From NCBI GenBank assembly GCA_021414235.1, contig JAIOOV010000004.1:473591-537590 (forward strand): a DNA stretch of 64,000 nt, written 5' to 3'. The stretch's first letter is position 1. Each line of letters starts with the position of its first letter. The DNA comes from Candidatus Parcubacteria bacterium. Lineage in GTDB: Bacteria > Patescibacteriota > Minisyncoccia > Phycocordibacterales > JAKFXT01. The translations under genes were made by a program, and so were the position numbers. Shown here piece by piece: positions 8,099-51,775 of this stretch. Below the pieces are notes generated by a model. The model made no database searches, had not been told where the DNA came from, and was given only the letters and a program-made list of their open reading frames with translations.

Positions 8099-10051
8099 AT
8101 GCCTATGCCCCCCATCTCTAAGTCCTCCTCGAGCAAAGCTCTCGAAGGTGTCATCAGCATCTCAAGCCGCGCGGTGGGCTACCTCAAGACCACCCCTCCT
8201 TCTGCAGTAGATATCGAGATCCAGCCGGAGAATCTCAGTGTCGCCATGCATGGTGACACTGTGTTGGTAGAGCCCCTGCGCGAGCAGGTCCGAGGCCGTG
8301 ATCAGGGCAAGGTCATCAAAGTGGTGAGCCGCGCACGTACCCGCTTCGTAGGCTTCGTCGCCATGACCCCGATGGGTAAGGCGCTCATCCCCGACAACTA
8401 CCGTATCCATGTGGCACTCATCTTGCCTGCTGATGACAAGACCCCCCTCAACTACAAAGCGCAGGTAGAACTCGGAGAGTGGAACGAGGGCGAGACTAAT
8501 CCCCGATGCCGCGTGGTGAAAGTCATCGGCCCCAAAGGCAACAACGACGTGGAGATGGAATCTATCGTGCTCGAGAAGGGCTTCGAAACCGGCTTCCCTA
8601 CTGCCGTAGAGGCGGAAGCGGAGGAGATCAAGAAGCATTCTGCGGAGAATATGCGCAAAGAGCTCGAGATACGCCGCGACATGCGCAGCGTCCTCACCAT
8701 GACCATCGATCCGAAGGATGCCAAGGACTTCGACGACGCCATCTCCATGCAGACCCTCCCCTCCGGGGATTACGAGATCGGCGTACACATCGCGGATGTA
8801 GCGCATTACGTGACCCCTGGCACCGAGCTCGACAAGGAAGCCCAGAAGCGCGGCTGCTCCATCTACCTGGTGGATCGCACCATCCCGATGCTTCCCGAGG
8901 TTCTCTCGAATGACCTCTGCAGCCTCAACCCCAACGAAGACAAGCTGGCCTTCTCTTCCATCTTCGTGATGGACAAGAACGGGAGGATAAAGGATCGCTG
9001 GTTCGGCCGCACCGTCATCCGCTCGCATAAGCGCTTTACCTACGAAGACGCGCAGCAAGGCATCGTCACCGGAGAGGGCCCCCATGCCGCAGAACTCCAG
9101 GAGCTCAATCGCCTGGCGAAGATCATGACCAAGGAGCGCTTCGAGAACGGCGCCATCGAATTCGAACAGGACGAAGTCAAATTCGAGCTCGACGAAACAG
9201 GCAAGCCCATCCGCGTCTTCCGCAAGCAGCGCCTCGACGCCCATCGTCTGGTGGAAGAGTTCATGCTCCTCGCCAACCGCGAAGTGGCTACCTACGTGCA
9301 TCGCTTGCCAGGCAACGAGAACAAAGATGCTCCTATCTTCATGTACCGCATCCATGATCTTCCGAAAGAAGATCGTATCGCTGAACTCGCCATCTTCCTG
9401 CGCGCCCTCGGACACGAGGTGCACGTAGACAAGAAAGGCATCTCCGCCAAGGACATCAATGCGCTCTTCAAGCAGATCGCAGGACACGCAGAGGAAGGCA
9501 TCGTAAAGACGGCGGCTCTCCGCAGCATGGCCAAGGCTATCTATTCCACCCGCAACATCGGGCACTTCGGCCTCGGCTTCACCTACTACACCCACTTCAC
9601 CTCCCCCATCCGCCGCTACCCGGACACCCTGGTGCACCGACTCCTCGCCATCTACCTCGCAGGCTCACGCGTCTCCAAAGAAGAATTCGCTTTTTATGAA
9701 AAGATGGCGGCCCAGAACACCGAGTCCGAGATCCGCGCAGTCGAAGCCGAACGCGATTCCATCAAGCTCAAGCAGGTGGAGTACATGAGCACGCGCGTGG
9801 GCCAGGTATTCGACGGCGTCATCTCCGGCGTCACCGAGTGGGGCATGTATCTTGAAGAGAAGGAGACCAAATGCGAAGGCATGGTGCGCCTCCGCGATAT
9901 TGGGGATGATTTCTATACGTTGGACGAAAAGAATTACTGTCTCGTGGGCGAGCGCACCAAGCGCAAATTCTCCCTCGGCGACACCGTGCGTTTCAAAGTG
10001 GTGAATGCGGATACCGAGAGGAAGACCTTGGATTACGCTTTGGCGGCATAA
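8099..10051 (+). CDS. rnr: Ribonuclease R (RNB-family 3'-5' exoribonuclease with C-terminal S1 domain)
   Basis: 650 aa. RNB catalytic motif MTIDPKDAKDFDDAIS and a C-terminal S1-like region. Confidence 0.9.
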   Translation: MPMPPISKSSSSKALEGVISISSRAVGYLKTTPPSAVDIEIQPENLSVAMHGDTVLVEPLREQVRGRDQGKVIKVVSRARTRFVGFVAMTPMGKALIPDNYRIHVALILPADDKTPLNYKAQVELGEWNEGETNPRCRVVKVIGPKGNNDVEMESIVLEKGFETGFPTAVEAEAEEIKKHSAENMRKELEIRRDMRSVLTMTIDPKDAKDFDDAISMQTLPSGDYEIGVHIADVAHYVTPGTELDKEAQKRGCSIYLVDRTIPMLPEVLSNDLCSLNPNEDKLAFSSIFVMDKNGRIKDRWFGRTVIRSHKRFTYEDAQQGIVTGEGPHAAELQELNRLAKIMTKERFENGAIEFEQDEVKFELDETGKPIRVFRKQRLDAHRLVEEFMLLANREVATYVHRLPGNENKDAPIFMYRIHDLPKEDRIAELAIFLRALGHEVHVDKKGISAKDINALFKQIAGHAEEGIVKTAALRSMAKAIYSTRNIGHFGLGFTYYTHFTSPIRRYPDTLVHRLLAIYLAGSRVSKEEFAFYEKMAAQNTESEIRAVEAERDSIKLKQVEYMSTRVGQVFDGVISGVTEWGMYLEEKETKCEGMVRLRDIGDDFYTLDEKNYCLVGERTKRKFSLGDTVRFKVVNADTERKTLDYALAA

Positions 10052-10055
10052 AAAA

Positions 10056-10082
10056 TCGCCGCCGAGACAAGCTCGGCGGCGA
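10056..10082. terminator. Bidirectional-looking terminator hairpin (11-bp stem TCGCCGCCGAG / CTCGGCGGCGA)
   Basis: Lies between the convergent rnr stop (10051) and the stop of the minus ORF (10083). An A-run precedes it and a T-run follows on the minus strand (ATTTTTTATG). Confidence 0.6.
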
Positions 10083-10610
10083 CTACCAGACACTCTCCTT
10101 AACAGAGAGATTGTCTGCCAAAATATCTTGCGGTTCAGAAAGAAAGAGCCAGACATTGGCTGCAACCCTCGCTGACTCAGTCATCTCGTGGAACTCGTCA
10201 GACCGCGCGAGCCTAAAGGAACGATCCTCCAGATTTTCAACGGCTACTGATTCCCGAGCCGTCATCGCTTCTTGTAGAATTTTTACCGCAAGCGGTATCT
10301 TCTGAACATCAAGAGAGGTATGTCTTCGATGCATCCTCTTTTCTCTTCTACGAGTCCACCACTGCTCTAGAAAATTCATGGGGGCTAAATAGAGAGCGAG
10401 GATTTCGTTGCGCTCCTGTGCAACCCCGGCAAGATCCGTAACGAGCTTGGTAATAACTCCTCCCCGATCAAAAAACCTTACTACCAGTTTTATACTTGAA
10501 CCGTCCATGCGGCGTTCGAGGGATTCACGAAACATCCCCTCAAAAGTGGTGATGTGCCTCGGCCGCAGGATAAATTCAGCCTGCACGAGGTTGGGCCGTT
10601 CGCTCACCAT
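10083..10610 (-). CDS. Hypothetical protein (175 aa)
   Basis: Clean ORF bounded by a terminator hairpin at its 3' end. No recognisable motif. Confidence 0.5.
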   Translation of the reverse strand: MVSERPNLVQAEFILRPRHITTFEGMFRESLERRMDGSSIKLVVRFFDRGGVITKLVTDLAGVAQERNEILALYLAPMNFLEQWWTRRREKRMHRRHTSLDVQKIPLAVKILQEAMTARESVAVENLEDRSFRLARSDEFHEMTESARVAANVWLFLSEPQDILADNLSVKESVW

Positions 10611-10664
10611 GGTACAACCTCCTCTCTATTTTGGTTCTGGGTGGAGCCTAACGCCATTAAACAT

Positions 10665-10727
10665 AAAAAGAAAGATGGCCCGGACACTTGTCCGGGCCAT
10701 ACCCTATTCGGGATTTCTAATCCTTGG
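10665..10727 (-). repeat. Copy 1 of a ~60-nt gene-3'-end plus terminator module (hairpin GGCCCGGACA-ct-TGTCCGGGCC followed on the minus strand by TCTTTCTTTTTAT)
   Basis: About 85% identical to the copy at 13305..13365 once reverse-complemented. Immediately follows the stop of the ParB-like gene. Confidence 0.7.
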
Positions 10728-12261
10728 GCACGAGTCCCGCTAGCTTTTCAGCGCGCTTAGCAATCTTGAGAAGCTTCTCGCGAGTCCCCAGGCGTTCGCC
10801 AGGAGTCCTGGCGCGAAGTGTGCTGACGAAGCCGGCCTGATCATGCTCGAGACTGATTTCAAGCATCTCCAAGTGACGATCGAGCCGCTCTGTCAGCACC
10901 CTGAAAGCAGTGGAAGGTTTCTGCTTCCTGGTCCGACGCTGCACCCCGAGTTCTTTGGCCATCTTGCGGATTTGCACGACGGCCATGGCTACGGAAAGCC
11001 CTTTCACCAAAAGAGCAGCTTTCATCTGCGACTCAGGAGGAAGGTCGGAGATAGCTATGGCCACATCCGTGACCAACTTATCCGTCGTCTTGCTCTCCTC
11101 GCCGGCTTTCAGGGCGACGAGCGCCCTGACCTCAGGAACGAGGTTAGTCAATCGGAGAAATCGTGAGACGTTGACTTGATTTTCCCCAACCAACGCTGAA
11201 ATCTGCGTTTGAGTGAGGCCATCCTTCCTGAACTGCTCGAACGCCAACGCCTTCTCCATAGGCGTATGAGTCTGACGGTGGAAGTTCTTCATGACCGAAA
11301 GGGCGAAAAGGATTCTCCTGTCCGCCGGGTCATCGCAGACCACGGCAAGGTAGGTAGGTATCCCCGCTGTAAGACACCCTTGCCACCGACGCTCGCCATC
11401 CACGATCATGTAGAGCTTGCCCACCTCGCCATCGTAGGGCACGACCAATGCAGACTCTTGTTGCCCGACCAGCTTGAGCGAATCGACCAAGGCCACCATC
11501 GCAGCCGGATCGAAATATTTCCGAGGCTGATTCGGATTCGGACAAACCTGAGAGGTGGGCACCTCTATAGCTCCCCGAAACCTGTACTTTTCGCGAAGCT
11601 CTTTTAGCGAAGCGATGTATGCTTCCGAGATTGCCGCGGCTTTCCGGGAAGCAGACAATTCCAACGCTTCCGTTTCTAGAGGAATCCGAGCTGACACCGC
11701 GATAGGCTTCGGCTCGGGTTTCGGCTTCGAAGAAGGCGCCTGTTCCGCGACGCGCGGTTCATGAGGAACCTCCTTGTTAACAACCTCGGGCTTGAGTGGT
11801 GCCGACTTTGGAGCGGACGCAGGAGAAGTCAGTGCTGATTTCGCTTGAACCGGTGGCTGCACAGGCGCAGCTGCCGGCTTAGACGGAGCAACCAATACTG
11901 GTCTTTCCGAGGGCGGATCCTTACGAAGAGTTGATCCTGGCCTCGCGGGCAAAGTCGGCCTAGCAACCAGCGAGCCTCTGGACTGATGCACAACTCTGGA
12001 ACGACATGCGTCTGTCCCCTGACTCTCGTGGAATTCGCAGAGACCCTTGATAGGATCCTTCACTCTCGCCTTAGGGTCCACGAAGCCCTGCAAGATACAA
12101 AAACCGCAGAGCCTCCAACGTGAGGTGCATCCTCCGCAGAACTCGCTGTTTTTCCGGTAGACACTCGTAAGCCCTTCGCAGGTAACCTGAGGAACCGGTT
12201 TACCAGCTTGCGCCTTGCACAGATGTGTCTGCCCCGAAGGGCCGACGGACGTATCAGTCAT
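10717..12261 (-). CDS. ParB/Srx-fold nuclease-domain protein with an N-terminal Cys-rich (zinc-ribbon-like) region and a Pro/Ala/Lys-rich linker
   Basis: 514 aa. Central IVDGERRWQGCLTAGIPTYLAVV is a ParB N-terminal-domain GERRW-type motif followed by a helix-turn-helix-like stretch (TQTQISALVGENQVNVSRFL). The N-terminus carries at least 9 Cys (CGGC, CGFC). A roughly 100-aa low-complexity linker separates the two. Confidence 0.65.
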   Translation of the reverse strand: MTDTSVGPSGQTHLCKAQAGKPVPQVTCEGLTSVYRKNSEFCGGCTSRWRLCGFCILQGFVDPKARVKDPIKGLCEFHESQGTDACRSRVVHQSRGSLVARPTLPARPGSTLRKDPPSERPVLVAPSKPAAAPVQPPVQAKSALTSPASAPKSAPLKPEVVNKEVPHEPRVAEQAPSSKPKPEPKPIAVSARIPLETEALELSASRKAAAISEAYIASLKELREKYRFRGAIEVPTSQVCPNPNQPRKYFDPAAMVALVDSLKLVGQQESALVVPYDGEVGKLYMIVDGERRWQGCLTAGIPTYLAVVCDDPADRRILFALSVMKNFHRQTHTPMEKALAFEQFRKDGLTQTQISALVGENQVNVSRFLRLTNLVPEVRALVALKAGEESKTTDKLVTDVAIAISDLPPESQMKAALLVKGLSVAMAVVQIRKMAKELGVQRRTRKQKPSTAFRVLTERLDRHLEMLEISLEHDQAGFVSTLRARTPGERLGTREKLLKIAKRAEKLAGLVPKD

Positions 12262-12364
12262 GATAGCCTCCCGGGGCTTTTGTGGTTGGGGGCGCCGACG
12301 TCAAAGACCTCGGTCTGCGGGGAATTATGTCCGAGAAGGCTTTAAAAGCAAGTTAGTGCTTAAC

Positions 12365-12817
12365 CTAAAAAATATAGAAAGCACAGGCCGCGGCGCTGAG
12401 CCAACAGATAGTAGAGATGGCTCCGCTCGCGAAAAGCCAGAATTTTTCATTCTTCGAGAGCGCAGCGAAAGAGCGTTCGAAGGCTACATTCATGAGCCTG
12501 CCGATGAAGAGTGCGTTCACCGCGAGTACCGCAACGAAAAACATCTTCTTGAAGAAGGTCGGAGACTGCCCCGAGAGGAGATAATCGCGCGTGGGCCAGA
12601 AGAGCAGGAAGCCAGTAGCGATCATGCCGAGCAAGCCTATCCAGACAAGACGATGGAGAAGCATTGTCTTCTTCCTATCAAGCACCTGCTTTGTGCCGCG
12701 GAAATAAGTGAAGGCGTCGTGGTCAGCAAGCAGAATCGCGAGTGCGGTCAAACACAAGATACCGATATGCACCGGCAGGATAGGGAGCTGAGAAAGCGTG
12801 TCGAGAAAAGAGATCAT
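12365..12817 (-). CDS. Hypothetical integral membrane protein (4 predicted TM helices)
   Basis: 150 aa of hydrophobic helices. 5-bp gap to the upstream cytochrome-b5 gene, which suggests an operon. Confidence 0.55.
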   Translation of the reverse strand: MISFLDTLSQLPILPVHIGILCLTALAILLADHDAFTYFRGTKQVLDRKKTMLLHRLVWIGLLGMIATGFLLFWPTRDYLLSGQSPTFFKKMFFVAVLAVNALFIGRLMNVAFERSFAALSKNEKFWLFASGAISTICWLSAAACAFYIF

Positions 12818-12822
12818 TCTTG

Positions 12823-13197
12823 CTATTGAACTAACGTACCGATCTTGAAGGCAGCGAGCACGTCATTGGGCTGCGCCTGGCTTCCATGCTGGCCATTGAA
12901 TGCAGCGGAGCCATCCTTACCGCATATCTTAAGTATATTCCTCTCCCCTCCCGGATGCTGGCTTATCCACGCAGTCAGATCGTAGACTCCGCCATCAATG
13001 GCGCTCCAGCAGCTCTCCTTCGCAGCGTGAGTGGCTACATCCGCCAGGGTATAGGTCTTGGAAGTATCAACGGAAGTAGTGCCTATGGGCTGACCGTCTT
13101 TCCCTACAAAAGAGCTGGAATTGGTGCTGCTAAAATACCAATAGCCTACGCCGCCCAATACTGCTACCGCGACGAGTCCGATCAGAATTTTGTTCAT
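12823..13197 (-). CDS. Membrane-anchored cytochrome b5-like heme-binding domain protein
   Basis: YTLADVATHAAKESCWSAIDGGVYDLTAWISQHPGGERNI matches the cyt-b5 HPGG signature. N-terminal signal anchor. AT-rich promoter-like region upstream (13198-13300) with a TATAAT. Confidence 0.7.
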   Translation of the reverse strand: MNKILIGLVAVAVLGGVGYWYFSSTNSSSFVGKDGQPIGTTSVDTSKTYTLADVATHAAKESCWSAIDGGVYDLTAWISQHPGGERNILKICGKDGSAAFNGQHGSQAQPNDVLAAFKIGTLVQ

Positions 13198-13304
13198 TGG
13201 ATAGCTAAACTAGAGTTAGATGTCTTCTATTATAGTACAAAATAACTTCTTATTTATTTCAAAAATAGATACCGAGAAAAAGACTTTCGATTATGCATCG
13301 GTGT

Positions 13305-13365
13305 CATAAAAGAAAGACGGCCCGGACATTTGTCCGGGCCGTACCCTTTCGGGATTTAATACTAC
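13305..13365 (-). repeat. Copy 2 of the gene-3'-end plus terminator module (hairpin GGCCCGGACA-tt-TGTCCGGGCC followed on the minus strand by TCTTTCTTTTAT)
   Basis: See copy 1. Follows the stop of the 126-aa ORF. Confidence 0.7.
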
Positions 13366-13742
13366 CCCTTGGAAACCGCCCTTGCAGGAACTCTCTGCGC
13401 CAGCCTGGAGGCAAGCTGGGAAAGATGGAAGATCCTGGCCCGGAGATCGTTGGACTCCTGGATAGGCATCTTCCCAAGGGCGGATTGAAAAGTGCCGATA
13501 GGTACCTGGAGATTGCGCTCCAGTTCGGCGCACATCTTATCGACGCGCTTCTGCAGAGCCTTGGCACTCACGGGAATCGCGCCGTCTTTGGGCGACGATC
13601 GCAATACTCCCGGCTTCGATGCCGAGGTAGATTGGGTTCTCGGTCTTTGTGCCAATCCCGAACTCGCAGCCCCCGCCCGCCCAGCGGAACGAATCATGGA
13701 CGGACGCCAGTTCTCATTTCCACCCATCTGACTAACGCTCAT
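13362..13742 (-). CDS. Small protein homologous to the C-terminal ~110 aa of the ParB-like protein (diverged partial duplicate, possibly a gene fragment)
   Basis: The segments KALQKRVDKMCAELERNL and RARIFHLSQLASRLAQRV align with RVLTERLDRHLEMLEISL and REKLLKIAKRAEKLAGLV of the 10717..12261 product. It shares the same downstream terminator repeat. Confidence 0.45.
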   Translation of the reverse strand: MSVSQMGGNENWRPSMIRSAGRAGAASSGLAQRPRTQSTSASKPGVLRSSPKDGAIPVSAKALQKRVDKMCAELERNLQVPIGTFQSALGKMPIQESNDLRARIFHLSQLASRLAQRVPARAVSKG

Positions 13743-13846
13743 TGGTGCCCTCGTAGCTGATGTGATTGTTCCCGAATTACGATTCGTATTGTTTATAACA
13801 CTAAAATTGTGTCAGGTCAATGTTATCAAAAGAAGGTAACGTGGAT

Positions 13847-16069
13847 CTATTTCGCCACCGCAACCGCTTCATCAAAACGAACCGAGAGAAGCTTCGAAGC
13901 TCCTTCACTACCCATGGTCACACCATAGAGGACACCTGCACGGCTCATGGTCTCACGGTTGTGAGTGATGAGGATGAGCTGGGAATATTTGGAAAGACTC
14001 TCCACCATATCGCCGTACTTGCGGGAATTAGCTTCGTCGAGCGCCGCATCTGTCTCATCGAGAATCACAAAAGGCGGCGGATTAACCTGAGAGATAGCAA
14101 AGAGGAGCGCGATGGAGGTAAGAGCGCGCTCGCCACCAGAGAGCATCTGGAGACCCTTGGTGCGCTTATTGGGAAGAGAGACGCTGATGTCTATTCCCTC
14201 CTCCGCTTCCTCCTGCGGCGCCTCCCCTTCGAGATCCTCCGCTGCCTGCCGGCGACGCTTAGGTGCCTCGACAGTAGAAAGCGCGGCCGTGCCTCCGCCG
14301 AACATGAGCGCAAAGAATTTCTGGAAAGCGCTATTTATCTTCCCCATACCTTCGGTGAATTCTTTCTCGAGTTTCTCAGAGAGCTCTGCAATCAAACCTC
14401 GTAGTGTCTCAGCGGAGTGCGCAAGATCTACCAGTTCTTTTTCAAGATAGGCATCGCGTGTCTTGGTATCCTCGTACTCCTTCTCTGTATCAGCTCCACC
14501 TGCTCCACCCATCTCCTCCAAACGGATCTTCATCTTCTCCAAAGTCTTGCGGCGCGTCTCCTGTTCAAAGCGCGCTTCGCGGCCACCACTCAGCACCACT
14601 TCGTTGTAACGCAGCACCGGGAGCCCAAGAAGCGCTTGGCCCTCCATGAGTTCTGATTTGAACGCAGCTTCGTCACGCTTCAATGTATCCTCACGAGAAC
14701 GCAGTACGAAGAGCTGCTGAGAAAGATCGTTGCGCTTAGAGACCAGCGCAAACATCTCACGCTCCGCGTCGCGGCCAGAGCGCTCATCAGCTTCGATAGC
14801 TTCTTTCAGTTCCTGGTAGTGTTTACGCGCCGCTTCGCTCTTCTCCTTGGCAGCCGATGCCTTACCACCAAGCGCCGCCTTCTCCCCCTTCAGCTTCTTT
14901 ATCTCCGCCTCAATCTCTCCGGAGTGATCATCCGCCGCACGCTTGCCGGAGACGAAAGAGCGGACCAGGCCAGCTATAGTATTCAAAAGTTCACGGAGAA
15001 CTGAAATGTTCTCCTCGCGCGAAGCCTGCGCTACGAAATTCTCCGCCTCCTTCACTACCCGCTCAAGCTCGGAGCGTGGAATAGTGACACTCTCAGACTG
15101 AACACTGTTTGCCGCGCGCGCGAGTGCTTTCTCTTCGGCGAAGATGATACCGTCGAGACGGCTCTCCTCGCGACGAAGCGATTCCATCTCCTCTTCTGCT
15201 TGGCGTAGCGCTCTTTCCGCTTCTGCGAATTCGCGACCCTCTTTGTCCCGACCCTTGCCGGAGAGCAACGACTCGATAGCTTTTACCCGTTCATCCACAG
15301 CCTTCAATTCCGCTGTAGGTCCTTCAAGGGAGGAGGCAAGTGACGCGCGCTCCTCCCCAAGATATGTCTCCTCGCGCTTGAGATATTCCTGATACAGCGT
15401 CTCGAGCTCGCGCTTCAGCGCTTCCGCCTTACGCACCTTCTCCATCTGCTTCTCCAGGAAGCGCAGATGCGGTGCCAATTCCTTACGAAGCGATTCCACC
15501 TGCTTCATGTTCTCGGCAGTCTTCTCCAATTTGCGCTCACTCTCCTCGCGCTTGTACTGATACACCTTGAGGCCGAGTGCATCCTCGATCATCGCTTTGC
15601 GCTCCTTGATGGAGGCATTCAGGATCCGATCCGCTTCGCCCTGAGAGATGATGTGATGGCCGGAGGCGCCGATGTTGGCAGACGCGAGAAGTTCGAGAAT
15701 ATCCTTGAGGCGCACTTGAGTGCCGTTGAGGCGGTATTCGTTGGTACTATCGCGGAAGACCGTACGCTCCAGAGAGACTTCATCGAAGTCCACATTGAAG
15801 ACCTTGGGATTGTTGTTGAAGACGAGCTTCGCAGAAGCACGTGCAGGCTTGGGCAAGGTCTTGGAGCCGGAGAAGATGAGGTCCTCGCCGCGCTTGCCAC
15901 GCATGCTCTTCATGGACTGCTCGCCCAAGACGAAGCGGAATGCTTCGGCCACGTTTGATTTACCAGAGCCGTTCGGCCCCACGATGCCGGTGATCGGCGT
16001 AGTGAAATTGAGCTCAGTCTTCTTGGCGAATGACTTGAAGCCGTAGAGTTCGAGGCTCTTTAGATACAT
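13847..16069 (-). CDS. smc: SMC-family chromosome condensation ATPase, unusually short (740 aa) with no recognisable hinge domain
   Basis: N-terminal MYLKSLELYGFKSF...GPNGSGKSN Walker A. Long coiled coils. C-terminal LSGGERALTSIALLFAIS signature and FVILDETDAALD Walker B. Conserved rnc-smc synteny. Confidence 0.8.
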   Translation of the reverse strand: MYLKSLELYGFKSFAKKTELNFTTPITGIVGPNGSGKSNVAEAFRFVLGEQSMKSMRGKRGEDLIFSGSKTLPKPARASAKLVFNNNPKVFNVDFDEVSLERTVFRDSTNEYRLNGTQVRLKDILELLASANIGASGHHIISQGEADRILNASIKERKAMIEDALGLKVYQYKREESERKLEKTAENMKQVESLRKELAPHLRFLEKQMEKVRKAEALKRELETLYQEYLKREETYLGEERASLASSLEGPTAELKAVDERVKAIESLLSGKGRDKEGREFAEAERALRQAEEEMESLRREESRLDGIIFAEEKALARAANSVQSESVTIPRSELERVVKEAENFVAQASREENISVLRELLNTIAGLVRSFVSGKRAADDHSGEIEAEIKKLKGEKAALGGKASAAKEKSEAARKHYQELKEAIEADERSGRDAEREMFALVSKRNDLSQQLFVLRSREDTLKRDEAAFKSELMEGQALLGLPVLRYNEVVLSGGREARFEQETRRKTLEKMKIRLEEMGGAGGADTEKEYEDTKTRDAYLEKELVDLAHSAETLRGLIAELSEKLEKEFTEGMGKINSAFQKFFALMFGGGTAALSTVEAPKRRRQAAEDLEGEAPQEEAEEGIDISVSLPNKRTKGLQMLSGGERALTSIALLFAISQVNPPPFVILDETDAALDEANSRKYGDMVESLSKYSQLILITHNRETMSRAGVLYGVTMGSEGASKLLSVRFDEAVAVAK

Positions 16070-24281: not shown

Positions 24282-26123
24282 TTATGCCTCAGGGAATTCC
24301 TTGCGGCTCTCGCGAGCAGCCATGTCCATGACACGGGATACTGCGAGACGTGCGCCCAAGAGCTTCGAGCTGTAGCTCTCATCCCCTGCTCCGATGAGTG
24401 CCGTGATGGCGGACTCGAGCGTCTGGAGGCTCCAGCCGGCGGTCGCAGTAAGCGACTGCTCGTTGGCACCAATCTCACGCACAGTGCGGAAGCGGTGTAC
24501 CTTGTCGAGCTCGTAGGAAGCCGCCTTGAGGAACTCAGGGATGTTGTGACCCTGCGCATCGAGCATGTGGAGGAGCGCAGAACTCTTGGTGCTGTTCCCT
24601 GCTGCGAGCCAGCGTACGAACATCGGCACCATAGAGAGATAGGTGGAGAAGAGCATCTCGCGGACACGCGTTGCCGAGAGCGAGAGCCAAGAGTATTCCG
24701 GCTTCTCGTACCAGGCATGCGCCACTTCGGTGAGTTCAGAGAGAACATTCTGGGCCTGCTCTGCCTTACCATCCGCTGCAGAGAGGATGAGGGCAGCTGC
24801 ATCCTCGGAGAGGAGGATTTCCTTCTCACGAGCGTAGCTTACGAGCATCTCATAGATGCGAGTCTTCTCCTCATTGCTCATGCCGGTCGCAACCTTAGGT
24901 GCTGCAGGAGCCGCCTTGAGGGTGCGAATCTGGCTTACGAGATCAAGCGGTGCATCAGCTTCCTTGCGGAGAGCGAGTGCTGCCGGAGCTGCCACTACCT
25001 CAGGGGTAGCAACTGGCTCTGCAACCTCTTCAACAACAGGAAGCGAGACTTCCATCACCGAGCTTAGAGCGACAGTGCGCGGCAGCGGCGTGAACGGATT
25101 AAGGAGATCTGCATAAGGCTTGAGTGCAGCGCCCACGGAGAGAGCGTAGCGGGACATGTCATCCCCCATGGAAGCGAGAGGCTGGAATACCTGCATCGAG
25201 CGCGAGATACCACCGGCATAGACCATGCCGTAGGAGAACATCGCGGAGAGACCAAGAAGCCCGAAGAGGAAGAAATACGTGAAGAGGGTGTCGCCTACGC
25301 CGGTGTACGGGATGGAACCGAGGTTCACCGAGACGAAGGATGCGAGCGGAGAGCTGCCAGTCACGCGGGTGAGCTCGACGTTCGGCATCGTACCGCCGCC
25401 GCCGGTGGAGCTACCGCCACCAGAAGAACTGGAAGACGAGCTGCTACCACCGCCAGAGGAAGATCCTGGAGGAGGCGGAGGAGGTGGGGGCGGAGGAGGA
25501 GGCGGAGGCACTTCTATACCGCCAGAGGAAGAACCGGAAGAAGAACCCGGAGGAGGCGGAGGAGGTGGGGGCGGAGGAGGTACCTCTATACCACCAGAGG
25601 AAGAGCTAGGAGGTGGTGGTGGGGGCGGCGGAGGAGGCGGAGGGGAAGGAGGTTCGATGTTCGGACCCGCTTCTATAGGACCACCAGAGGAGGAACTACC
25701 TGTCTCGCCGCCGGAAGATGAGCCACCGCAGCCCTCGCAGCCACCCGAAGAGGAGCCCATACCATCGCTGGAGCCGCCACATCCTTCACAACCGCCAGAG
25801 GAAGAACCCATGCCGTCGCTAGAGCCACCACAACCCTCGCAGCCACCGGAAGAGGAGCCCATACCATCGCTGGAGCCGCCACATCCTTCACAACCGCCAG
25901 AGGAAGAACCCATGCCGTCGCTAGAGCCACCCTCGGCTCCGCCACCGTCGCCGCCACCATCCGAGGAGCCCATGCCGCCACCGTCGCCGCCTTCCTGAGC
26001 AAAGACGCTGGAAATGGAATTACCAGTAAAATTATTCGAAAGAGAAAAACCGACCACGAATGAGGCTATGGTGAGCACGAGGGCACTGCTGATGATTAGA
26101 TTTTCTTTAAGGAATTGGTTCAT
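24282..26123 (-). CDS. Repeat-rich membrane protein: signal/anchor, four tandem SSDGMGSSSGGCEGCGG repeats, three poly-proline runs (11-15 Pro), a Gly/Ser-rich stretch, a TM helix, and a 330-aa C-terminal domain of unknown function
   Basis: 613-aa ORF. The repeats and the CxxC (CEGC) motifs were read from the translation. N-terminal VFAQEGGDGGG... is paralogous to the small ORF at 55944..56156. Confidence 0.7.
   Translation of the reverse strand: MNQFLKENLIISSALVLTIASFVVGFSLSNNFTGNSISSVFAQEGGDGGGMGSSDGGGDGGGAEGGSSDGMGSSSGGCEGCGGSSDGMGSSSGGCEGCGGSSDGMGSSSGGCEGCGGSSDGMGSSSGGCEGCGGSSSGGETGSSSSGGPIEAGPNIEPPSPPPPPPPPPPPPSSSSGGIEVPPPPPPPPPPPGSSSGSSSGGIEVPPPPPPPPPPPPPPGSSSGGGSSSSSSSSGGGSSTGGGGTMPNVELTRVTGSSPLASFVSVNLGSIPYTGVGDTLFTYFFLFGLLGLSAMFSYGMVYAGGISRSMQVFQPLASMGDDMSRYALSVGAALKPYADLLNPFTPLPRTVALSSVMEVSLPVVEEVAEPVATPEVVAAPAALALRKEADAPLDLVSQIRTLKAAPAAPKVATGMSNEEKTRIYEMLVSYAREKEILLSEDAAALILSAADGKAEQAQNVLSELTEVAHAWYEKPEYSWLSLSATRVREMLFSTYLSMVPMFVRWLAAGNSTKSSALLHMLDAQGHNIPEFLKAASYELDKVHRFRTVREIGANEQSLTATAGWSLQTLESAITALIGAGDESYSSKLLGARLAVSRVMDMAARESRKEFPEA
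25455..25640. repeat. Roughly 190-nt homopurine (GGAGG/GGCGG-rich) tract on the plus strand with an internal direct repeat of about 66 nt. It encodes the poly-Pro runs on the minus strand.
   Basis: Read directly from sequence. Confidence 0.75.
25722..25930 (-). repeat. In-frame tandem DNA repeats (2 x ~102 nt, equal to 4 x 17-aa GGCEGCGG units) inside the 24282..26123 CDS
   Basis: Near-identical 102-nt units visible on the plus strand (ggagcccataccatcgctggagccgccacatccttcacaaccgccagaggaagaacccatgccgtcgctagagccacc...). Confidence 0.8.
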
Positions 26124-49937: not shown

Positions 49938-50795
49938 TTAGATCTCCTCAAAAGCAGGATTGACCCGGCAATCCACCGTCTTCGAGGTATTAACTTCAGA
50001 ACCGTTGTAGCAACGTACTGTGTAGGTACTCGTCTCGGTGACATTCGGTACGGATACCGAACCGGATGTCCCTGTCTGGCTCACTCCTGGGCCCGTGACC
50101 GTGCAGGAAGTAGCATTCGTCGCTGACCAGGTGAAGCTGCAGGAAGCGCCTTTGTTGATCACGATGGAGGGAGCGGCAGGAACCGTGGTGATGGTGGGCG
50201 CCGTACAAGAGGATTCCGGCGGAGCCACGGTAGCGGAACACGCACCCGCACAGCTATACGTACCGTAGGTCACCGCGCCGCAGCTATTAGCGGCAGATGT
50301 ACAGACCTGTCCCTGGTTGGCAGAGCAATAAGAAGCTTGGTAGTAGCCCTGGGAGTAGTAGTAGCCTTGATAGTACCCCTGCGAGTAATAGTAAGGTTGG
50401 TAATACCCCTGAGAGTAGTAGTAGCCTTGGGAATAGTAGTAGCCTTCGTAATACCCCTGGTAGTAAGACTGGTAATAACTTTGATAATACGATTGATAGT
50501 ACCCTTGGTAGTAACCCTGGTAGTACCCCTGATAGTAGGATTGGTAGTAGCCTTGGTAATACCCCTCTGCATAAGAATCCCCCGAAGCCGGGAGTATGAC
50601 TCCTCCCTCCTCTCCATTCGGTGAGAGCGAGTTGTAATCAATCTCTGGAGACTGCGGACCAGAGCTCTTCTCCAAATACCCCAAACTTGCTAGAGAGATG
50701 ACGAGAAAGATTGCCACACTCGCAAAGGAAAGGAGCCTGCGCTCGCGGAGTAGGTTAGAAAATCTTTTATTTATTTCACGAAAAAAGTGCCTCAT
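49938..50795 (-). CDS. Tyr/Gln/Gly-rich repeat protein 1 (YYQGYYQS repeats) with N-terminal anchor and conserved Cys-rich C-terminal domain
   Basis: 285 aa. About 25 copies of (G/S)YYQ-type units, then the ASYCSANQGQVCTSAANSCGAVTYGTYSCAGACSATVAP domain ending CRVNPAFEEI. Confidence 0.7.
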   Translation of the reverse strand: MRHFFREINKRFSNLLRERRLLSFASVAIFLVISLASLGYLEKSSGPQSPEIDYNSLSPNGEEGGVILPASGDSYAEGYYQGYYQSYYQGYYQGYYQGYYQSYYQSYYQSYYQGYYEGYYYSQGYYYSQGYYQPYYYSQGYYQGYYYSQGYYQASYCSANQGQVCTSAANSCGAVTYGTYSCAGACSATVAPPESSCTAPTITTVPAAPSIVINKGASCSFTWSATNATSCTVTGPGVSQTGTSGSVSVPNVTETSTYTVRCYNGSEVNTSKTVDCRVNPAFEEI

Positions 50796-50857: not shown

Positions 50858-51775
50858 TTAGATTTCTTCAAAAGTCGGATTGACCTGGCAGTTCACCGTC
50901 TTTGTGGTATTCACCATGGAGCCATTGTAACAACGCACTTGGTAGCTTCTCGATTGCGTGATATCAGGGACAGACACTGAGCCCGAAAGACCAGTGGAAT
51001 TCACCCCAGGACCGGTCACGACGCAAGAAGTAGCATTAGCACTGCTCCAGCTAAAGCTGCAAGCATCGCCTCTATTGATGACGATTGTCGGAGAAGGAGG
51101 CGCAACAGTGATAACTGGGACGACGCAGGAAGATTCCGCAGGAGCCACGGTAGCGGAACACGCACCCGCACAGCTATACGTACCGTAGGTCACCGCGCCG
51201 CAGCTATTAGCGGCAGATGTACAGACCTGTCCCTGGTTGGCAGAGCAATAAGAAGCTTGGTAGTAACCTTGATAATAACCTTGATACGCCGCTTGATAGG
51301 CGGACTGGTAATAGCTCTGGTAGTAGGATTGATAAGCAGCCTCATATCCAGCTTGGTAATACCCTTCGTAATAAGGCTGATAGTAGCTCTCGTACGTAGA
51401 CTGATATTGGCTCTGGTAATACGCCTCGTAGGTCGACTGGTACTGGCTTTGATAGTAACCCTCGTACGTAGACTGATATTGGCTCTGGTAATACGCCTCG
51501 TAGGTCGACTGGTACTGGCTCTGGTAATAGCTTTGGTAAGCAGCTTCAAAATAAGAATCCCCCGAAGCCGGGAGTATGACTCCCCCCTCCTCACCATTCG
51601 GTGAGAGCGAGTTGTAATCAATCTCTGGAGACTGCGGACCGTTATCAATCGGCTGAAGGTAGCTCAAGGCGGAAATCACAGCCAAAACCAGAGCCAATAC
51701 CGCCAGAAAGAGCAACTTCCGATCACACAGCAAAGCGCCCATATTACGCCGCCATCTCTTAAGAAGGTACTTCAT
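50858..51775 (-). CDS. Tyr/Gln-rich repeat protein 2 (YYQSQYQSTYEA repeats), tandem paralog of 49938..50795
   Basis: 305 aa. Shares two exact or near-exact nucleotide blocks with its neighbour (50221-50345 = 51142-51266; 50572-50660 ~ 51552-51640). Confidence 0.7.
   Translation of the reverse strand: MKYLLKRWRRNMGALLCDRKLLFLAVLALVLAVISALSYLQPIDNGPQSPEIDYNSLSPNGEEGGVILPASGDSYFEAAYQSYYQSQYQSTYEAYYQSQYQSTYEGYYQSQYQSTYEAYYQSQYQSTYESYYQPYYEGYYQAGYEAAYQSYYQSYYQSAYQAAYQGYYQGYYQASYCSANQGQVCTSAANSCGAVTYGTYSCAGACSATVAPAESSCVVPVITVAPPSPTIVINRGDACSFSWSSANATSCVVTGPGVNSTGLSGSVSVPDITQSRSYQVRCYNGSMVNTTKTVNCQVNPTFEEI

Follow-up and report, generated by a model that had tools for sequence, protein, structure and literature searches.

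A putative orphan clamp-type ParB with a predicted Cys7His metal-binding module in an apparently hypervariable cargo slot between smc and rnr of a Candidatus Parcubacteria genome

Chromosomal ParB/Spo0J proteins are DNA clamps that depend on cytidine triphosphate (CTP), with a ParB N domain and a helix-turn-helix (HTH) domain, and solved examples come from T. thermophilus (1vz0), M. xanthus (7bnk), B. subtilis (6sdk) and C. crescentus (6t1f). Noc is an orphan ParB-fold protein without a ParA, and its N-terminal element is a membrane-targeting amphipathic helix. KorB of plasmid RK2 is a CTP clamp of the ParB family that acts as a transcriptional repressor. A survey of orphan proteins with the ParB-CTPase fold describes members that are encoded outside a parAB operon, lack a ParA-binding motif, carry lineage-specific domain fusions and have a divergent Box III (bioRxiv 10.1101/2025.10.10.680097). 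Here we analyze a 64-kb stretch of DNA (the window) from a 544-kb contig of a Candidatus Parcubacteria metagenome-assembled genome. In this stretch, a gene for a 514-amino acid (aa) ParB-family protein, which we call ParB-ZnR, is one of several genes (locus tags K8Q93_03575-03595) between the convergent genes smc, for a short SMC-family ATPase, and rnr, for RNase R. We put the probability at roughly two in three that this region is a hypervariable cargo slot that carries a fossil copy of its own boundary and involves no site-specific element, and that ParB-ZnR is an orphan clamp-type ParB in which a two-metal Cys7His module takes the place of the ParA-activating peptide.

The order RNase III, SMC, slot, RNase R and S16 is common to four independent relatives (relatives are labelled L001 to L018; L007 is the same sequence as the window). 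Their SMC proteins have at least 90% aa identity to the one in the window, and nucleotide identity is 80-86%. The contents of the slot differ. L001 and L012 have a 491-aa ParB alone, with the same N-terminal Cys domain and a start codon 88 nt past the smc stop codon. The closest relatives, L008 and L009, have only a 175-aa open reading frame (ORF) with 88.6% aa identity to an ORF of the same length in the window. L010 and L011 have a 238-aa ORF without a family match, and L018 has ORFs of 311 and 129 aa, the latter related to the 238-aa ORF, as well as a DUF1801 protein. A first metagenome scan gave no match, and a second that included RNase R returned L018 and a set of distant relatives (RNase R 46-55% aa identity), which keep convergent rnr and smc with 0-745 nt between them and no ParB. 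When GTDB representative genomes were scanned with the ParB alignment, only remote ParBs (30-34% identity) came up. Based on these comparisons, the region appears to be a hypervariable cargo slot between two convergent core genes, with an ORF body and additional cargo that differ within the genus.

The slot has sharp borders. In L011 and L012, sequences with 85% identity enclose a part that cannot be aligned; one conserved side runs to codon 3 of the slot ORF, and the other starts at the terminator hairpin. The fixed frame begins with the smc stop codon, continues with a leader that has a ribosome-binding site and ATG, and ends, past the ORF body, with an intrinsic terminator and the stop codon of rnr. 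The leader of ParB-ZnR is homologous to the sequence right after the SMC stop codon in L012 and L011 in a multiple alignment of the spacers, and blastn aligns window positions 12355-12107 to 3370-3614 of L001 and 10605-10849 of L012. Compared to L008, the window has a single extra block of 3189 nt (10659-13847). The body of the ParB gene is far more diverged than its surroundings: between the window and L012, ParB has a nonsynonymous divergence (dN) of 0.51 with saturated synonymous divergence (dS) and 46% aa identity, versus 91% for the flanking genes (SMC, dN 0.065 and dS 1.34; RNase R, dN 0.064 and dS 1.18). ParB either evolves fast or is exchanged fast.

The slot ORFs of L011 (2499-3215, 238 aa) and L018 (1701-2090, 129 aa) are 43% identical over 74 aa. 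Both have the ParB-ZnR leader and start context (MTD../MAE..) with no significant similarity to ParB-ZnR itself. Within this shared expression frame, their ORF bodies may have been replaced or may be strongly decayed. The 238-aa ORF of L011 was considered as a candidate for a decayed ParB. Over 29 aa it is 45% identical to the ParB stretch just past the Zn module, a similarity that is not statistically supported, and a family-wide C-terminal hidden Markov model (HMM) did not score it above shuffles.

The proposed fossil boundary includes a repeated terminator. The palindrome GGCCCGGACA..TGTCCGGGCC occurs exactly two times in the window (0 expected by chance), both inside a 51-nt repeat with 92% identity (H1 and H2, Table 1) that recurs in direct orientation, as a sequence-only reading of this stretch had noticed. 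On the minus strand the two copies fold at -27.7 and -28.7 kcal/mol (z -4.1 and -4.9; 0/200 shuffles equal). Their stems are 11 bp long, including 8-9 GC pairs, and lead into CTTTCTTTT; a terminator scan picks both. A GC-rich hairpin with a U-tract downstream of a gene, the hallmark of intrinsic (rho-independent) termination, is present in each case, and H1 and H2 are therefore intrinsic terminators of ParB and of a 126-aa ORF (ORF126), respectively. Besides its main hairpin, H1 has a small one of the form CCC-loop-GGG, and its U-tract ends in TTTTTATG. H2 is now the terminator for ORF126 and SMC transcription. The motif AAATCCCGNAAGGGT and a GCCCGGA-stem hairpin also follow the ParB stop codon in L012, and a homologous hairpin is found in a single copy in both L012 and L011, thus in relatives with and without ParB. 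H1 and H2 have at most 11 identical nucleotides in a row, so RecA-type (homologous) deletion between them is unlikely, contrary to the earlier suggestion that the repeats could mediate deletion.

Next to H2 is a feature absent from the sequence-only account, a 42-nt relic of the end of the RNase R gene (R2). It is identical to the RNase R end of the window at 33/42 positions, with the stop codon in register, and to those of L012, L008 and L011 at 30, 28 and 27 of 42 positions. Its translation is DTEKKTFDYASVS followed by a stop, compared to the conserved RNase R end DTERKTLDYALA[AIV] followed by a stop, and the changes are at otherwise invariant residues. ORF126, H2 and R2 therefore duplicate the convergent junction in full (ParB end, terminator and rnr end), and an intact junction of this kind is present in a relative. 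The proposal that an old duplication or insertion had copied a gene 3′ end with its terminator thus holds, and the adjacent R2 extends the copy to the whole junction; relatives searched for the arrangement without the copy indeed lack it. The repeats do not bracket a discrete element, since ParB and its leader occur without them in L012. The earlier reading had also missed that the ParB gene itself lies between the two repeat copies and that the 175-aa ORF lies outside them. ParB and its leader were probably already in place before the repeat arose, and the lineage-specific additions are the unit of ORF126, terminator and relic and an operon of cytochrome-b5 and membrane-protein genes.

The protein part of the repeat is weaker. 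It had been described as a recurrence of the last ~110 aa of ParB; we find 60-79 homologous residues at ~25% identity, with no BLASTP match between ParB and ORF126 and no blastn similarity between the two regions beyond the 51-nt module (none upstream of the stop codons). The alignment is colinear (25-27% identity over 60-79 aa; tblastn, 27% over 79 aa) and reaches both C-termini. A Smith-Waterman comparison of ORF126 with the last 100 residues of ParB gave z = 5.2, with 1/2000 shuffles as high. A profile built from two clade ParB C-termini gave ORF126 12.6 bits over an ungapped 60 aa (residues 60-119), a score reached by 0/3000 composition-matched shuffles. The terminal codons also correspond in frame (VPKD and VSKG, plus IPKN in the relative, each followed by the stop), and then come AAATCCCGNAAGGGT and the hairpin. 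This protein repeat is weak but significant, and we read ORF126 as the relic of a second ParB-ZnR copy that kept only the C-terminal helical bundle. No homologue of ORF126 other than itself was found among 5.8 billion proteins. Its codon signal is -0.02 bits per codon (0.12-0.62 in neighbouring genes), and its reading frames are barely separated.

ParB-ZnR passes the cut-offs of PF02195 (34.1 bits; cut-off 26.3), PF17762 (31.4; 22.6) and TIGR00180 (81.8; 58.45), with ParB_N at residues 233-313 and HTH_ParB at 333-383. The layout consists of a Zn module (residues 9-95, nt 11977-12237), a disordered linker (96-179), a long helix (195-226), the ParB N and HTH core (~230-440) and a C-terminal three-helix bundle (449-510, nt 10732-10917). 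The mean AlphaFold predicted local distance difference test score (pLDDT) is 80.6, falling below 50 for linker residues 96-179. The Pfam and NCBIfam matches and the AlphaFold model bear out the N-terminal Cys-rich region, disordered linker and ParB N plus HTH core that had been proposed from sequence. Protein Data Bank (PDB) sequence matches of the core include 1vz0 (E 7e-21), and the best Foldseek matches are structures with bound CTP or CDP, among them 7bnk, 7bnr, 6sdk, 6t1f, Noc (7nfu) and KorB (8qa9), with E 1e-14 to 1e-9. A ParB-like nuclease had also been suggested; the core fold is that of the clamp-type ParB, Noc and KorB. Two of the three nucleotide-binding motifs, Box I (PNPNQPRKYFD) and Box II (DGERRWQG), are intact. 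Box III reads MKNFHRQ, in which Asn and Arg are kept and the Glu of ENLQR is replaced by Lys (family consensus ANFxR). From homology and structural models, ParB-ZnR is predicted to be an orphan clamp-type ParB that most likely binds CTP and closes as a clamp.

The full-length architecture is also found in L001/L012 and in 22 further representatives, and the N-terminus is conserved in frame (dN 0.36 for the Zn module versus 0.99 for the linker); the long 514-aa form is supported by both. Public gene calls use start codons other than those of the 514-aa ParB and the 650-aa RNase R. They shorten ParB-ZnR to 326 aa (NCBI, MCE9644292.1) or 260 aa (Logan), and the L001 protein to 329 instead of 491 aa. 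The 326- and 260-aa calls omit the Cys7His domain and the linker (especially 11239-12261).

An exhaustive search with residues 1-98 across 1.84 billion representative proteins gave 81 matches, ~78 of them seemingly genuine (three, with immunoglobulin-type N-termini and multi-stretch matches, were set aside). The domain is at the N-terminus in all genuine matches. Nine positions are invariant (C15, C28, C42, C45, R50, C52, C55, C75 and H78). The seven Cys and one His, as ligand-type residues, suggest two tetrahedral sites or Fe-S clusters. With an alignment of 43 sequences, AlphaFold models the module at pLDDT 90.8; neither Pfam nor NCBIfam has a model for it, and no sequence or fold match was found in the PDB. 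ParB_N is the partner domain in 23 members, and GerE/LuxR, XRE, winged-helix or other HTH domains are the partners in others. The named members are from Patescibacteria, Candidatus Kaiserbacteria and Candidatus Parcubacteria. Since LuxR/GerE, XRE and winged-helix regulators also begin with this module, we infer that it may recruit or sense a partner, and a regulatory role for ParB-ZnR is plausible. One member, a 232-aa Zn-module protein (P0038; L016, GCA_900218045.1, 7001-7699), is encoded beside 14 small opposite-strand ORFs that have no Pfam family match on record, with a GcrA-domain gene 6 kb from it. The surroundings could be a phage-like region.

The features of the slot and its borders are given in Table 1; all ORFs named by the sequence-only reading were found where it had placed them.

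Table 1. Genes, terminators and relics in and around the smc-rnr slot (window coordinates).
Feature	Coordinates	Strand	Remarks
RNase R gene (rnr)	8099..10051	+	core gene bordering the slot on the right; repeat copy R1 is made up of its last 14 codons (10010-10051)
Terminator common to 175-aa ORF and RNase R	10054..10084	-	13-bp stem, then T-tract
175-aa ORF, cargo	10083..10610	-	between H1 and RNase R
H1, ParB 3′ flank and intrinsic terminator	10666..10716	-	main hairpin 10675-10700
ParB-ZnR, putative 514-aa orphan ParB	10717..12261	-	Pfam, NCBIfam, PDB sequence, AlphaFold, Foldseek
ParB leader with GGAGG ribosome-binding site	12262..12355	-	directly after the membrane-protein gene
150-aa small membrane protein, cargo	12365..12817	-	co-oriented with cytochrome b5
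124-aa cytochrome-b5-domain protein, cargo	12823..13197	-	PF00173; N-terminal hydrophobic segment
AT-rich stretch, presumed promoter of the cytochrome-b5/membrane-protein pair	13198..13267	-	TATAAT hexamer at 13234-13229
R2, non-functional relic of the last 13 codons and stop of the RNase R gene	13268..13309	+	repeat family D2
H2, second ParB-type 3′ flank and terminator	13308..13357	-	main hairpin 13317-13342
ORF126, 126-aa orphan ORF	13362..13742	-	residues 60-119 (nt 13386-13565) homologous to the ParB-ZnR C-terminal bundle
Short SMC-family ATPase, 740 aa	13847..16069	-	left-hand core boundary of the slot; SMC_N residues 2-725

RNase R scores 677.9 bits with TIGR02063 (cut-off 597.85) and has Pfam matches to RNB, CSD2 and S1. 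The SMC protein scores 529 bits with TIGR02168 in two stretches (cut-off 567), without a hinge-domain match. It looks like a 'mini-SMC' without ~440 central residues, and the SMC proteins of the relatives are also 740-747 aa.

The 175-aa ORF has no family match in Pfam, NCBIfam, PADLOC or PHROGs. Its comparison with L008 (dN 0.055, dS 0.35, dN/dS ~0.16) identifies it as a real gene under constraint. It is flanked on both sides by TTTTTATG, and the terminator that it has in common with RNase R (-24.3 kcal/mol, z -5.0) is kept in L008. Against its L008 counterpart (12288-12815), the dS of 0.35 is below that of SMC (0.94) and RNase R (0.79), a hint that lineages have exchanged this cassette more recently.

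As the sequence-only reading had it, a membrane protein and a cytochrome-b5 protein lie between the repeat copies, preceded by a low-GC stretch with TATAAT (GC 0.42 over 13050-13349). The hexamer was read directly from the sequence, and a consensus promoter scan made no call there. The 150-aa membrane protein has no Pfam match and a weak NarI-like match (E 0.002); its homologues (42-56% identity) adjoin genes for a cupredoxin and an ArsR-type regulator, or Trx/DsbD/AhpC/Msr genes. The cytochrome-b5 protein matches PF00173 at E 1.5e-19. Together with the cytochrome-b5 domain, these neighbourhoods suggest that the pair is a small redox module and is not involved in defence.

Several features would fit an integrated mobile or defence island in which the terminator copies are att-like direct repeats and ParB-ZnR is an element-encoded ParB-like NTPase or nuclease: the direct repeats around a 2.6-kb block, the varying slot content among relatives, the fast evolution of ParB, and the frequent occurrence of orphan ParBs on mobile elements (bioRxiv 10.1101/2025.10.10.680097). 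We nevertheless regard such an island as highly improbable. PADLOC-DB 2.0 gave no family at E <= 0.1 for the five cargo ORFs, and none of these five matched an integrase, transposase, recombinase or nuclease family in Pfam, NCBIfam or PHROGs (PHROGs returned generic ParB-like partition families only), so the defence or mobile context that had been put forward from sequence found no support. The repeat is not specific to element ends; it is the terminator of the conserved frame, with a single homologous hairpin in relatives with and without ParB, and the ParB and leader of L012 have no repeats around them. Other ZnR-ParB genes are among housekeeping genes (a mur/ftsI cluster, an ATP synthase operon), with no ParA or SMC adjoining. 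The repeat is ordinary genome rearrangement debris and not a signature of defence or a mobile element. It is also improbable, to a lesser degree, that ParB-ZnR is the canonical chromosomal partition ParB of a ParABS system that loads SMC, with parA and parS elsewhere in the genome. The passed TIGR00180 cut-off, the chromosomal Spo0J/ParB proteins as closest solved relatives, the position of the L012 gene directly downstream of smc on the same strand and the NCBI name (partition protein) all speak for this role. However, no ParA/Soj-like gene and no second ParB were found within the window (tblastn with Soj), and the parS consensus TGTTNCACGTGAAACA has one 3-mismatch match there, with 0.83 expected by chance. 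The N-terminus is a Zn module and not a ParA-activating peptide, and the other family members are also without an adjacent ParA. ParB is not a conserved core gene of the locus, as it is absent from the slot in three same-genus relatives (L008/L009, L010/L011 and L018), and its dN is eightfold that of the flanking genes.

Some observations weigh against the cargo slot with a fossil junction and an orphan clamp. The searches for ParA and parS that gave no match covered a 64-kb part of the genome. For ParB-ZnR, binding of CTP and of metal, clamping and the recruitment of a partner are predictions from homology and models. A family-wide C-terminal HMM (25 ZnR-ParB sequences) does not score ORF126 above shuffles. 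The order of events in the slot is deduced from its anatomy, with duplication and import as candidate routes, and a sliding identity scan of the window against L008 gave no recombination breakpoint. For a simple in-genome duplication, the coding part of ORF126, with no nucleotide similarity to ParB, is far more diverged than R (79%) and H (92%). Saturated divergence in the coding part next to these two values speaks for an incoming allele that was already divergent, or for ParB evolving very fast. ORF126 is moreover an intact ORF that stays in frame up to the ancestral stop. It has a GAGGG ribosome-binding site and a site resembling a promoter (13815-13788), and may still function as a small protein. 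It could then be a functioning small paralogue, a free C-terminal dimerisation bundle that was kept after the duplication and forms heterodimers with ParB-ZnR, modulating or poisoning it; the retained part is exactly the predicted helical bundle. We think this unlikely, given that ORF126 has zero homologues in the protein search, a codon signal near 0 with frames barely distinguished and just ~25% identity to ParB, that a longer antisense ORF is in the same region, and that the relatives lack ORF126.

For the fossil-bearing slot, we propose the following history. The ancestor of the small clade probably held a ParB-ZnR gene in the leader/terminator frame. The window lineage would then have gained a second unit of leader, ParB, terminator and rnr 3′ end, either by tandem duplication of the unit of ParB, terminator and rnr end, or by one-sided (homology-facilitated) illegitimate recombination with DNA of a relative, anchored in rnr. 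The smc-proximal ParB copy would have decayed, shrinking to ORF126. The slot may thus be viewed as four units in order from smc: a degenerate leader, ORF126, H2 and the 42-nt rnr relic, which would be the fossil right end of the frame; the cytochrome-b5 and small-membrane-protein pair with its putative AT-rich promoter, at the junction between the copies; the leader, full-length ParB-ZnR and H1; and the 175-aa gene with its own terminator, between H1 and rnr. L008 probably lost everything from smc to the 175-aa gene. No site-specific element would have been involved. In the protein, the HTH would bind DNA, the N domain would bind CTP and close as a clamp, the C-terminal bundle would dimerise, and the two-metal Cys7His module, on its flexible tether of ~85 residues, would recruit or sense a partner.

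Two observations elsewhere in the window concern repeat-containing proteins. Tandem paralogues of 285 and 305 aa (49938-50795 and 50858-51775, minus strand) have an N-terminal transmembrane segment, (G/S)YYQ-type Tyr/Gln repeats with a 12-nt period and a Cys-rich C-terminal half, and a 146-nt stretch is 96% identical between them. In a 613-aa protein (24282-26123, minus strand), a 17-aa unit (GGSSDGMGSSSGGCEGC, 51-nt period) is repeated in tandem, with four copies in all, and poly-proline tracts and Ser/Gly runs come after them.

ParB-fold CTP switches are increasingly recognised as a broad class, and ParB-ZnR adds an undescribed architecture: a confidently modelled, predicted metal-binding domain without a Pfam, NCBIfam or PDB counterpart, tethered to a ParB clamp in Patescibacteria, a group that is poorly understood. 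That this domain also heads other HTH regulators points to a lineage-specific regulatory module. The locus illustrates well how cargo can turn over between two core genes of a reduced genome without a recombinase, and the junction fossil records one such event. A bolder proposal joins two claims: that the Cys7His module is a new, Patescibacteria-restricted metal (Zn or Fe-S) sensor or adaptor that couples a signal or partner to DNA-binding proteins, including a ParB clamp, and that the smc-rnr slot is a diversifying locus in which the body is swapped within a fixed leader/terminator frame, driven by phage, mobile-DNA or host-cell conflict and not by neutral decay. As a whole, this combination is speculative and probably does not hold.

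Compared to described systems, the slot resembles chromosomal gene-flux hotspots in having varied cargo between the same core genes, with sharp boundaries at the leader and terminator. It differs from them in being very small (0.06-3.8 kb), in having no integrase or tRNA, and in keeping a fossil copy of its own boundary (ParB end, terminator and rnr end). ParB-ZnR shares with the chromosomal ParB/Spo0J clamps the ParB N and HTH domains, Box I (PNPxQPRKYF) and Box II (GERRW), with sequence E values to 7e-21 and Foldseek E values to 4e-14. Unlike them, it has no ParA, parS or N-terminal ParA-binding peptide that we could find, it carries the Cys7His module and a disordered linker of ~85 residues, a Lys in Box III and an all-helical C-terminal bundle, and its gene is not conserved among close relatives. 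Noc is alike in being a ParA-less orphan ParB fold with a novel N-terminal element expected to confer a new function. In the fold search, the Noc structures 7nfu and 7ol9 rank with the best matches (template modelling score ~0.65 on target), and the Noc family model TIGR04285 matches ParB-ZnR at E 3.7e-19, far under its cut-off; ParB-ZnR differs in its folded, predicted metal-binding N-terminal domain and in its occurrence in Patescibacteria, not Firmicutes. KorB is alike in fold (8qa8, 8qa9) and unlike in that ParB-ZnR has no KorA-like partner, no plasmid context and another N-terminus. We found nothing specific in the literature on a Zn- or Cys-domain ParB in Patescibacteria, and the words zinc, cysteine and Patescibacteria do not occur in the text of the orphan ParB survey (bioRxiv 10.1101/2025.10.10.680097). 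It is with the proteins of that survey that ParB-ZnR agrees in its position outside a parAB operon, the missing ParA-binding motif, the lineage-specific domain fusion and the divergent Box III.

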